Assembly (NCBI GenBank): GCA_002269645.1
Contig: NIVC01004927.1
Coordinates: forward strand, 1 to 31,182
Length of the DNA stretch: 31,182 nucleotides
Source: Macrostomum lignano
Taxonomy: Eukaryota
Direction of reading: 5' to 3'
Below the pieces are notes generated by a model. That model did not search any database. It saw only the letters and a list, made by a program, of their open reading frames with translations, and was not told the origin of the DNA. The translations under genes and the position numbers were made by a program. Shown piece by piece: positions 3,301 through 9,300 of this stretch. How positions within the stretch are numbered: position 1 is the first letter of the stretch; each line of letters begins with the position of its first letter.

Positions 3301-6300
3301 TTGGGTCCGGACTTAAAAGCGGGCTGTCACAGTCTGCAGCTGAAATTTGTTTAAAACAAGCAAAACATTTCAGATATATGAGAATGCTCAATAATCAGTT
3401 TAAAAGTTTTTGCTTATGGATCAGTAAACACCGGCACTGTTACAGTCACGAACATTTTGCCAAGAACTTTCGTCGCTCACCATAGCACCGCCACCGAAAC
3501 GAACTGTTCAGGGCAGCCGTTGAACTCTGAGTTGCAGCTTCAGCTTCCGCTGTGGCCGCATCACTGACGGTAGCGGGAGGATGACTCAGCAACACAGCTG
3601 AGCAGTTCCGAGTTTCATTTCGGTGGCAGTCGATCAAAGGCTTCAGAATTGGGTTCGATGTAGCGTACGTCCTAATGGGAGTGGCTGCTGACGAACTCAG
3701 GGCAGTCACGAAATATTTCGACTCGCAGTAATTTCCTGCGTATTTAATTGTTAAAAATATGTGCGAGAGTTCAAACAACTCAATGTCAGATGCAGCAGAG
3801 AAAATCTCACCAGGTGCGGCTGGCACCTCACAGATGAACGGAAAGACGGCAGTTTCGCTGTCGCAGGGCACTGTGGACCACTGCATTCGCTCGCCGACCT
3901 CCGACACCACGCAGCCGCTGGTTGCATTGCTGGGCAGCTTCCAATTGTTCAGATGGGCTGACAGAAGCCTGCCGTCGGAGGTTTCAAATCTGCCGCTGGC
4001 GTTGCTGAACTCGCCATCGATTTGGATGAACTTGTAGGCCGGGACCGAGCTGAAACATAAGTTATCCAAGATATGATTCGATTGCATCTAACTGTAGAAT
4101 GTTGTATGTGAATGGTTTCAGTTTAGCTCAAACTCTCACAGGTTCAATTTTCCAAAAGGGCTTTGAAAATCTGTAGCTCAGACTCCGTAGTCATCTTTGC
4201 TAGCCGTCCTCTTCCGTTCCAGCAAGAGACTTGCAGATCTTGTGAGCAGTTTGCCTCGTTGCGATTGTATGAGGCTGGCTGGAGTCCGAGAATGGAGCCC
4301 AGTAGCAGAGTTGGCCATGACGGAAGGTGTTGATGGGACAGTCTGCGGGCAGGGGTCCCAGTAATGCAGTTACGATTGTGTACTACATTTTTGTACTTTT
4401 GTATCGCTGAATCCCTGGCCTGCGAGGCACGTTACGGTAGGGTGTACAGGGTACACTGGGTACAGTACAAGGACATGGGTCTTTGCTCGCTCCAACGTGA
4501 CTGAAGCCCTCTCAGGACGCCGGGACACCAACCACCTGATGCTAGTTTCATAACACACAGGCTGGCGTAAAATCAAAGCGAGTAGGGTGTGACTACATGT
4601 GCGTAGCCGAATCTGAGTCGGCGTCAGAGCACACGGACCCTTAGCTGCCACCTTGGCAACCGAAAGAAAAAAGACGGATGAGCCCACTCAGCGTACTTGG
4701 CGGCAGGAACTAATACAAGCAGCCAGCACAAACCTCCATAGGCCTCCCTTTTGATTCTGTTCTCGCTTCATATTGTTATTATTCAGCTTGTCCTGGAGTG
4801 GCGTGGGTGCCTGCAGACTAGTGGAGCGGGCGACCAAAAAGCTAGACAAAGTCAGATAGAAAAATCGCACACACGCCCAGCAGAGCGCGGCGCGACTACC
4901 AGCTACCTAAAAGTCAGCCCGCGCGGGGAAACCATTCCACCACACACCCCACCAGCCGGCCGTTGGGCTTTACCCCAAACCAGCCAATCACAACGCGGGG
5001 TGAGAGAGGAAACTCGTCAAGCCAGCAACTTGGCGCAGCTAACCAGCCGCAGTGGCTTTCAGTGCCAGAGAGAGCTAAAGTCGAAAACAAAATGAGAAGC
5101 ATGATGGGGGGGGCAAAGACAAAAAGCTCTTGCACTGTGAAAAAGTTCAAAAGGCAATACTACGTTTACCACTACTACGAGCATTGAAAGCAGTTTTAAA
5201 ACAGTAGTCTGGGAAAGGGGCTTTCTAGGACAAAAATTATCGCAGCCTCCATAATACACAAACGATTAACTTTATTATTCCCAAAGAGAATAATCACATC
5301 CCGAAGGATGTGAAGCTAACCGGAATCGAGCTGTATTTGGAAGTCATTGAGCCAAAGACCGCACTAAAAGCGGATTATCTCAAGGCAATGGAGAAGGAAA
5401 TTGATGTTGCATACACGGCCTACATGTGTCGAGATAAGCGAAACGAAACTAGAACAAACATCTGCATTAAAGAGGGATCATGCAGCAATCCAAGATATAT
5501 TATTATTAACATGAGAAACCCAAATAGCATTATACGCTACATGCATGGAGACGTGCGGTCCATTCAGCATGAAATCAGTGATAATCTTTACCTGCACTGC
5601 CACAAAATGGAGATTTCAGTCAGAACAAGATTAGCAAATTTTACATCGAATTGGTCGAAAGAGAACAATGGAATTGCTATCACTGCTCTTCAATATGGAA
5701 CTCTATATCCGATGTTTGGCGTTGATGTGTCTGCCAGACAAATGCCTACTGATAACAGCCCTGTGAATATCGTGACTAACAGTGAGAGGACTGCCGCAAC
5801 ACCCGTGGACTTATACATTATCTATGCATTTGAGAGGAAGTTGAAGCTTAATATGATCAACAAGTCATCCAGTAAAGTTTAAATATTTTTTGTGGGTGAA
5901 AAAATGGAAGCGATTGCTGAAAGAATAAATAATATTATTTCTCGCTCTAAGGAGAGCATTCCTATTACAATAACTGGGCGAATTAATGACTCAAACGGGA
6001 TATTTGTTAAAAAATTAGAGCAGGCGATTCGCCTGGATCCAGGTGCTAATTAGCATGTCTATCTTAACGACTTCACTGGTTGGTCAAACGTTCCTAATGT
6101 GATGGCAGCAAATACTAAGTTTTATTACAAATGGAAAGGTGCAGCAGGAGAACCTGTGGTATTCCCTGTGAGCACGCAAAGTGTGGATACCTACAATTAC
6201 TTTCTAGAAAACGTCTTTACTAAAAGAGGCCATTTTGAGACACCTGATCTGATTAAGCCAGAACTGTTCCCTGTCAAACTAACCTATGATCTCACTGTAA

Positions 6301-9300
6301 TGAGAGTGGTCATGCAAGTTCACAAAGATGCGGAGGTTGAGTTTAAAGATGACACTTGGTATAGGGAATTGGGATTCGAGAAGAAAGTTTATAAGGCAGA
6401 ATCCGCGGCGCGGACCGCCACTCAAACGTCGGGGGTCGTTAGCATGGCCCGGGAAAGTGTAAGCGGTTTGTTCTTAGCACCCAATATTGCAGACATTGTA
6501 AAGGGTTTGAATATTCTAATCAGAAGTAATCTCAGTCTTGATTGGGTATTTAAGAGAAAGCGAACGGATATTTTGTACAACATCTCTAACTCTGTAGCTG
6601 GAGGACAGATGCTGGTAGAGAAACCAAATCCAGTGAAAAGAGTTGTATTGAGTAATAAGGAGATTCACGAGATTGTGCTACACTTTGAGACTGAAGATGG
6701 GGTGGGTTTTTATTTCAACGGTGAAGAGTTTGTGTTGACGTTGATCATTGAGAGAATGTGAGAAAAAAATTACAATTGCTTAATGATTTCTGCAAAGTTA
6801 TAGTAGCTGTCGTAATCTTTTACGTAGGTCACTCCATACTTAAGAAACCAGTGTCTTTGGAGAGCTAGATTAATATTAGGGACATTGATATCAACACCAA
6901 GCCAATATTTTCTCATGTATTCGCTGCATTCTAGTTTGCATCGGTACTTACTCTTGTAATAAGGCTCGTGCCTTTTGTAAAAAGAACCTGGAGAGACGAT
7001 TGGAAGCATTTAATATTGAGAATTTAATTCTATCGGAGGATGAGCACCCTGGGTTTGGGGATTGGCGCTAATTTGATTGTCTTGGCACACTTTTTGCAAG
7101 GCTGGGAATATGGAGACTGATATTTTGTGCTAGACTTATGAGGCTGCGTAAATTTTTGATAATAAATGTAGAGACAGATTTTTGTGAGGGGCAGGTACTC
7201 TTTTTTCCTGATCTCTTTGGGAATAATAAAGTTAATTGTTTGTGCATTATGGAGGCTGCGATAATTTTTGTCCTAGAAAGCCCGTTTCCCATACTACTTA
7301 AAACACATAAGAGGAGGCTGAATATTCAAATGAGTATATTACCAGGAATTGGGCAGCCACGAATTTCGAATCTCGTAGTGACTTGATCTGCATCAGAAAA
7401 GTTAATGAAAAGCATTCTAGTCCGCAACGTTGTCGGCAGATATTGCTCAAAACCGAGACTCAAGTTGAACAGCTGGAATAATTCAAATGGGTGAAATTAT
7501 TTTTCAAAATATGCGTTTTTGAAACTATTAATACATTTTATTTAATAAAAATTTCGTGGGTCTGTTGCTACGACTGAGTCAATTCGTAAGGTTAGATCAG
7601 TCTTGTATCGCTGAAGTGGCTCCGATCAATATCCTAGGGCAACCACTAACCAAACTATAGTCACCCATTGTACACTGCTAAAATGTACAGAAGTATAAAA
7701 CCTTATATGAGCTATTAATAGACATCTCACATGCGCTGAACCGTGAAGTGTGACTGGACGGACGCTTTCATCTACAGGGCTTGCATAGGATACGACGAAT
7801 GTGGCGTTCTCCGACAGGCCGTTTAGTCTCCACCCTGTGAGCAAGTGCGCAGTTGCCAGCTGAACCTGCACTGTAGTTGGCGATGTTTGCGTGATTGTCA
7901 ACACAGCGCTGCTGACCCAGTCGCAATCTGAAGTGAATTTAGCCATTAGCGTTTGAATTTCAGTTCTGATTGATTTTCCTACGGCAACCGCGTCTCACCT
8001 TCAGGATAGCCCAGCAGTTCTAGTCTCAGCAGTCTCTTCCTCACAAATCTGATTGGCAGAATTCTGACTACTCTGGCAAGAAACGGCTTAGTGAAGGACA
8101 TCCGGGTGGCCATTTCGCTGCCTGTGAGACCGGTTCTGATGATCTGTAATTGACGAACATTTGTGCTCTAAAATACCTATTTATCTTTTCAATTGTACTT
8201 CCAAGTTGAACAGTACTATTTTTAACGTCAATCTCACATGGCTTAGTCCTCCAGCAGAGTACTCAGTATAATTGAGCATTTCTGTCGAGCTGTTTCCATA
8301 CCGAATTCGGGCGGTCGTGACGTACCCGTCAAAGCCTCCAGTTGCGAAGTCCAGACTCCGCTGCCCTGCCACACAATCCCGGTGATGCGGTGGATTACAT
8401 CCAGCTGAATCTCCAAGAAGCTGCCGTCAGTGGCTGCTGCAAGTTAGAAATGCCTCATTTTAGCCTCAACTATCAACTGCAGCACTGCTCACAGCTGGGA
8501 TCAATCAGCTCAATCAACTCAATCATCTCAATCAGCTGCCAAGCGACTCACAGTCAGAGAAGACGGCAGCGGGCGGCAGGCCGACCTCCTGGCCGCGATT
8601 CAGCGCTGCCATGAGCGGAGTCGGGTGCCGAAATGCATCCTGCGGACTGGCGGCTGTCGCATCGCCGACTGCCAGCTGATTGGCCATAATGCGACCGTCC
8701 TCGAGTCCGACATTTGAGTTGATGAAGTAGTAGGCAGCTGGAAATAAAAGAACTAGTTGACGTTAGAGTGACGCTGTTTACGAACTCCTGTAAACTCAGT
8801 TAAGTTTTTGTCGGAGTAAAGATTTGATGTAATCAGCTCACCAATGCTGGGATAGCCGTAGACTTCGAACTCGCAGAGTGAGAGAGTTCCCAGCGATGAA
8901 TGCTTTCGCAAGCCAGCGACTGAAGCAACCTGTTGGTTATTATAGATCACCTCTAAGACTTGTACTTCTCGTTGAGAGTGAAAAAGCTGCCATTTATTTT
9001 CTGTTTAAAATGACGGAATCGCTACCTTATTGACGTTAATCTTCCACAAATGGGACTTCATGAAGCCGCCAGTCCAAGTTTCCAATATCGTGACTGCTGT
9101 CGCGTCCCACGGAGCGGCCGTGCTGTTGCTGATGTAAACACTGGCTGACTGCATGTCCTCGGATAAGGCCTGGACTTTGTCTGTCGGATCAGGGGGTAAA
9201 TAGGGAAGTCCAATAAGTGCGATTGATTTGTTTAAGGCGACACAGAAAACCTTCTGCAGCTCTGAGGACTCACCGAGTGTCTCGACCATGTCGACTATAA

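Follow-up and report, generated by a model that had tools for sequence, protein, structure and literature searches.

Can a Polinton/Maverick transposon be reduced to about 2 kb, and what remains of its genes when it is? The question is raised by an element of 2,096 bp at positions 5203-7298 of a 31,182-nucleotide stretch of Macrostomum lignano DNA (NCBI GenBank assembly GCA_002269645.1, contig NIVC01004927.1, positions 1 to 31,182 of the forward strand; hereafter the window). A sequence-only reading had described it as a miniature Polinton with intact ends that keeps only capsid genes. We identify it as a defective, unusually small Polinton/Maverick derivative, which is neither a member of an autonomous family nor a satellite that encodes a capsid.

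Boundaries and gene content of the element

The element starts with AGTAGT and ends with ACTACT, corresponding to (AGT)2//(ACT)2 termini, and is bounded by 87-bp inverted repeats that match at 95% of positions. The four mismatches lie at repeat positions 7, 15, 54 and 62, and self-comparison of the window recovered the repeat match with an E-value of 4e-35. On either side the element is flanked by a perfect 6-bp target-site duplication, TAAAAC (5197-5202 and 7299-7304). The chance of an identical flanking 6-mer at a fixed site is ~3-5 in 10,000; empirically, identical 6-mers at the same spacing occurred at 6 of 14,890 position pairs within positions 1-17000 of the window. Termini, repeats, duplication and length were all confirmed as first described, and the structure of the element is real. 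Its G+C content is 39.7%, compared with 52.7% and 42.4% in the 1-kb flanks. The element comprises the following features.

5197-5202, no strand: left copy of the target-site duplication (sequence and chance estimates)
5203-5289, plus strand: left terminal inverted repeat, starting (AGT)2; probably just the outer remainder of a longer left end (start of capsid homology; motif recurrence at the right end only)
5231-5249, plus strand: 19-bp motif inside the left repeat, found again deeper within the right end; putative protein-binding site (3 matches across the window, none in 100 shuffles)
5290-5882, plus strand: 3' part of a gene for a double-jelly-roll major capsid protein (about residues 227-428 of 428), joined to the repeat and without a start codon of its own (homology to relatives)
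5591-5659, plus strand: stretch between two frame changes, where the long frame is nonsense (frame comparison with relatives)
5904-6761, plus strand: penton-like (minor capsid) gene of 285 codons with an in-frame stop at codon 50, 6051-6053 (homology and structure comparison)
6770-7009, minus strand: 79-codon open reading frame (ORF) with an ATG start, tail to tail with the penton-like gene and 8 bp from it; no reliable relative (ORF list and searches)
7010-7211, minus strand: right subterminal region, in which the motif occurs a second time (7140-7158) and, in degenerate form, a third time (about 7109-7131) (motif search)
7212-7298, minus strand: right terminal inverted repeat, ending (ACT)2 (repeat comparison)
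7299-7304, no strand: right copy of the target-site duplication (sequence)

No family passed the curated Pfam cut-offs in any of the 100 window frames scanned (12 + 88). Because there is no Pfam match and the interior is filled by capsid remnants and the small ORF, we regard the polymerase, integrase, ATPase and protease as absent, in agreement with the sequence-only reading; a protein-primed polymerase B and a retroviral-type integrase, neither of which gave a Pfam match, would moreover not fit into 2,096 bp. The element combines the terminal motif, 6-bp target-site duplication, terminal inverted repeats and double-jelly-roll capsid homology of a Polinton/Maverick with the lack of a packaging ATPase, of a maturation protease and of the 13-25 kb size. 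It keeps its cis ends without mobility genes, as do non-autonomous elements of the type of miniature inverted-repeat transposable elements (MITEs), and its earlier description as a non-autonomous Polinton/Maverick derivative stands. Rfam and tRNA searches yielded no matches, and the right end folded no better than shuffled sequences (z 0.78).

Remnants of the capsid genes

The 217-codon frame at 5229-5882 runs from stop to stop; its first 20 codons are repeat sequence, and its first ATG is internal, at 5388. Five relatives were found among 331 candidates of 381-2,000 residues, with identities of 48-62%, and all five longer relatives passed the Pfam cut-off for PF21738, the double-jelly-roll domain. 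The fragment itself matched no Pfam family; an Atlas lead pointed to PF04451/PF21738 clusters at 0.95-0.97, with low recognition. PDB sequence searches gave no significant match for either the capsid or the penton-like protein. Homology to the relatives supports the identification of this frame as capsid. The window matches only positions 227-428 of the 428-position profile (relatives of 422-438 residues), which is the C-terminal ~47%. Homology to capsid proteins sets in at 5286-5295, no more than a few bases from where the repeat ends (5289). Four relatives share 2-3 of 21 residues with the frame inside the repeat and 54-67 of 98-101 directly after it. The junction between left repeat and capsid sequence is located at this position.

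Within the fragment, the stretch at 5591-5659 is read in the wrong frame. Another frame is identical there at 14-18 of 21-23 residues in all five relatives, whereas the long frame is identical at 2-3 of 22 in each of the four tested; the long frame remains open because the two frame changes cancel each other. The model of a capsid relative was poor (predicted local distance difference test score, pLDDT, 35.3) and was used for rough domain limits only, placing beta-sandwich domains at ~23-251 and ~265-412. Among its BFVD matches, 6 of 16 are named major capsid proteins. By these approximate limits, the fragment would lack almost the entire first jelly roll. As judged from the alignments, then, the major capsid gene is not intact: the first ~226 residues are absent, and two frame changes are present.

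The penton-like gene begins 21 bp after the capsid stop on the same strand. Its part after the stop codon has 13 relatives among 199 candidates (53-90% identity), none of which carries a Pfam domain. A model computed with X at the stop position had a pLDDT of 53.6, with a poorly modelled jelly roll. BFVD gave it 16 matches at E<=0.001, with TM-scores of only 0.22-0.30; 5 carry a minor capsid or penton name, one of them belonging to a MELD virus, and the others are mostly unnamed. Comparison with the PDB by VIA returned capsid proteins as the top five matches, including the mavirus penton, with Z values of 6.1-7.9 (below Z 8) and root-mean-square deviations of 3.5-4.5 over 105-122 aligned residues, covering residues 59-201 only; the next match was a flagellar cap protein at Z 5.2. 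Foldseek against the PDB gave no match at E<=0.001, the best being the mavirus penton at 8.6e-3. From the structure matches and the position beside the capsid gene, the second gene is likely a penton, which falls short of proof. It is broken by the nonsense codon.

The proposal that the element carries ORFs resembling a major capsid protein and a penton was therefore borne out as to the resemblance, by homology and with the penton as the likely member of the pair, and not as to the ORFs, the capsid frame being 5'-truncated without a start and the penton frame interrupted by a stop. The best VIA matches of the capsid relative's model were unrelated beta-sandwiches. That the element keeps capsid genes in working order does not hold, with the first jelly roll mostly deleted and a nonsense codon in the penton-like gene. 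No relative turned up in phage records or among prokaryotic genome contigs, where none of 85 candidate stretches qualified and a further search gave 0 matches. The element marks a divergent capsid lineage with few, unnamed relatives. The capsid relative P0003 and the penton-like relative P0015 possibly share one contig, as each lists a longest contig of 3,702 bp.

The small ORF is probably a small accessory gene of the parent element. An ORF of its length arose in 131 of 5,000 resamples. A word-based search among proteins of 43-139 residues gave no candidate relative, and extension through the upstream stop, read as X, gave no match. Its interpretation as the tail of a DNA methyltransferase, prompted by an Atlas lead (0.89) and a 19-residue pairwise match (E 0.037), was rejected: against a methyltransferase profile built from E. 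coli YhdJ and 12 of the 30 listed phage matches it scored -0.1 bits, a value reached by 228 of 2,000 shuffles. Also rejected was P0021, which is a tandem-repeat translation without a BLASTP alignment; it was the single match (E 2e-4) in a search of 1.84 billion representatives, the one search that extended to longer forms. Elsewhere in the window, 21277-21390 on the minus strand matched the same profile weakly (E 0.057 among 707 segments), probably by chance.

Probable origin and fate of the element

How the interior was lost is indicated by the repeat motif. The 19-bp motif occupies repeat positions 29-47, and its inner copy lies 141-159 from the right end. Inner copies are confined to the right end, which suggests a truncated left end; together with the start of capsid homology at the end of the left repeat, this makes one deletion the most likely explanation. 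As knowledge of the family suggests, a Polinton/Maverick-type element would have been inserted by a retroviral-type integrase, generating the 6-bp duplication. A single large internal deletion would then have brought the outermost 87 bp of the left end up against mid-gene capsid sequence. The final 2,009 bp of the parent would have stayed in one piece, comprising the 3' half of the capsid gene, the penton-like gene, the small ORF and the right end. The loss most likely took place in situ, either through ordinary repair of a break or through gap repair that was aborted after an attempted excision, a deletion route known for P and Ac/Ds elements. Decay without selection would have followed, with no particle made. 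The capsid remnants would thus survive because they adjoin the right end, not as a module, and, if one deletion cut the left end, 87 bp would be a lower bound for the parental repeat length.

That the element is a non-coding deletion derivative is very probable. To the full account, in which the deletion arose in place and the copy decayed and is unique to this locus, we give somewhat better than an even chance. The close packing of genes inside the element, with spacers of 21 bp (capsid to penton-like gene) and 8 bp (penton-like gene to small ORF), resembles an intact viral genome and counts in its favour. Divergence of the repeats at 4 of 87 positions translates into ~2.4% per copy (95% interval about 0.6-5.7%). 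At that age, the numbers of stops expected from neutral decay are 0.83 for the penton-like gene, 0.66 for the capsid fragment and 0.37 for the small ORF; the observed counts are 1, 0 and 0. Of 110 columns that are otherwise invariant, the penton-like gene deviates at 9, compared with 0-6 of 101-107 in nine full-length relatives (four partial rows left out, stop position included). The data are compatible with neutral decay without proving it. Among 3,511 vertebrate Maverick loci, 96% are reported as degraded (PMC8097293).

Several observations weigh against this account. Outside the off-frame stretch, the capsid fragment departs at 8 of 90 columns compared with 4-9 of 86-91 in four relatives, which is no excess (two rows left out; low power). 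It is somewhat surprising, if decay alone was at work, that the 217-codon frame stays open through cancelling frame changes. The small ORF has remained intact, although the probability of this is 0.69 at such an age, and a single-base lesion could be an assembly error. Finally, a random locus with perfect ends should be biased towards multi-copy families.

In the strongest alternative, the deletion is older than this insertion, having occurred in a different copy or in the course of extrachromosomal replication; a helper then provided the polymerase and integrase that copied the 2.1-kb unit and inserted it in trans. We consider such a history possible, though on the unlikely side. The element would accordingly belong to a miniature non-autonomous family whose members require nothing but their ends, an assignment we can offer only tentatively; equally doubtful is the wider proposal of a miniature Polinton family amplified in trans, as the Polinton counterpart of a MITE or a defective-interfering genome. 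In favour of this history are the perfect state of both termini and of the duplication, and the first motif copy, which the short end still carries. Zebrafish Polinton-1N1, -2N1 and -4N1 comprise 5,598, 1,874 and 5,744 listed copies, fragments included, according to supplement file 3 of PMC9341512. These known N families measure 10.4-15.5 kb, however, and the left end appears to lack two of the three motif copies, which may be needed in cis; the mismatches at repeat positions 7 and 15 imply that at least one end has decayed. No second copy was found within the 31-kb window, which is a weak test.

The two accounts differ in what they would mean. As a single decayed copy, the element represents ordinary transposon biology, though far smaller than catalogued non-autonomous Polintons. 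To our knowledge, the cis sequence needed for Polinton movement has so far not been measured; were the junction found in multiple copies, it would set a natural upper bound on that sequence and point to an overlooked class of miniature derivatives. If the family is amplified in trans, protein-primed copying and integration would need no more than 87 bp at one end, carrying one copy of the motif, and a whole size class would have escaped surveys that start from polymerase and integrase.

The sequence-only reading had also raised, should the element be multi-copy, a satellite or defective-interfering class; in the strongest version of this idea, the element would supply capsid proteins with a helper polintovirus or be packaged with one. 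In agreement with this idea, the element retains only capsid-module sequence and one small ORF, and at its formation the penton-like gene may still have been complete. Yet the major capsid gene lacks its first ~226 residues, which on the low-confidence model of a relative are most of the first of two beta-sandwich domains, the remaining fragment has no start and contains an off-frame stretch, and the penton-like gene has a stop. Intact vertebrate elements, moreover, span 12.7-24.6 kb, which their authors read as a size constraint (PMC8097293). A satellite encoding its own capsid is excluded for this copy, both capsid genes being broken; capsid supply is excluded because the deletion itself removed half of the capsid gene. 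We judge any satellite role very improbable. Slightly less probable still is co-option by the host, with the truncated capsid frame kept open and expressed as a dominant-negative protein or a small-RNA source against related viruses. The open 217-codon frame, despite its two frame changes, and the lack of excess change at conserved columns would fit such a role, but there is no start before 5388, the off-frame stretch replaces 22 conserved residues, and zero stops in the fragment has a probability of 0.51 at this age. Least probable of all is an assembly artefact, with a full-length element collapsed or wrongly joined where its repeats lie. Simple repeats abound in the window, but the junction links a repeat to mid-gene sequence and not to another repeat, and the element's two repeats have 4 mismatches between them.

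The flanks of the element matched nothing elsewhere in the window, so that an empty site could not be inferred. Further repeats occupy other parts of the window. Nested inverted repeats with 77- and 83-bp arms surround repeated units of 60 and 121 bp at 26117-27126; they are foldback- or MITE-like, and no Polinton end motif was seen in them. A 227-bp MITE-like element with inverted arms of 33 and 23 bp lies at 24632-24858, long (TAAC)n and (CTGA)n microsatellites and a 21-bp minisatellite at 17556-19555, 23950-24392 and 28020-29595, and a duplicated unit of about 535 bp at 27776-28544. At 13297-13816, a 127-bp direct repeat (95%) flanks an insert that ends in a short telomere-like (CTAACC)n stretch (13647-13690). 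The 172-codon frame at 14246-14764, which by eye we take to resemble the RNase H-like region of retroelements, had no Pfam match. Alternating GC-rich and AT-rich blocks at 1-4400 and 7700-17500 suggest host exons and short introns, mostly on the minus strand, and by eye the flanks resemble an intron-rich animal genome; 0 of 88 frames matched Pfam at E<=0.01.

Relation to known systems

With Polintons/Mavericks (polintoviruses, adintoviruses) the element shares the (AGT)2//(ACT)2 termini, the 6-bp duplication and a repeat length within the reported range. Mavericks are described with an (AG)3 or (AGT)2 terminal motif and a 6-bp duplication, and intact vertebrate elements with repeats of 46-1,447 bp (PMC8097293). 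Double-jelly-roll capsid and penton-like genes are likewise adjacent in Polintons (PMC4028283). In that account the penton gene is usually upstream of, or one gene away from, the major capsid gene, whereas here it lies directly downstream (5290-6761). Polintons range from 13 to 25 kb (PMC10748475), in contrast to 2.1 kb for the element, which has no polymerase, integrase, ATPase or protease and in which both capsid genes are broken. With the defective Maverick 'genomic fossils' it shares stops and frameshifts alongside repeats and a duplication that can still be recognised (PMC8097293).

Repbase and Dfam list the zebrafish Polinton-1N1_DR, -2N1_DR and -4N1_DR as multi-copy, at 15.5, 11.1 and 10.4 kb (PMC9341512). 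Like the element, these are Polinton derivatives, listed as families apart from full-length ones; the element is 5-7 times smaller, in a comparison by size and listing. The 'N' in their names presumably stands for non-autonomous, as in Repbase usage. A literature search yielded no description of a 2-kb Polinton; founding papers, Repbase entries and preprint supplements, which may describe small ones, lay outside its scope. The vertebrate survey states that integrase and polymerase matches 4-40 kb apart were required (PMC8097293), and a nematode survey describes a similar requirement, so that a 2-kb copy would be invisible to both. One study reports discarding Polinton-like elements of <10 kb as incomplete, and a lizard survey reports seeing no non-autonomous copies. 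Owing to such filters on size and on polymerase and integrase, very small Polinton derivatives are under-sampled.

Two further classes offer a comparison. Satellite viruses and defective-interfering genomes keep the termini that serve as origins; the element also keeps termini that would serve as origins, but, unlike satellite viruses, encodes no working capsid. Internal-deletion derivatives of cut-and-paste transposons, such as Ds, KP and MITE precursors, keep ends and duplication and have lost the interior at one junction, leaving unequal arms. The element shares with them both ends and the duplication, the loss of the interior at one junction and the unequal arms, and differs from them in that its parent was virus-like and self-synthesising, with excision only putative.

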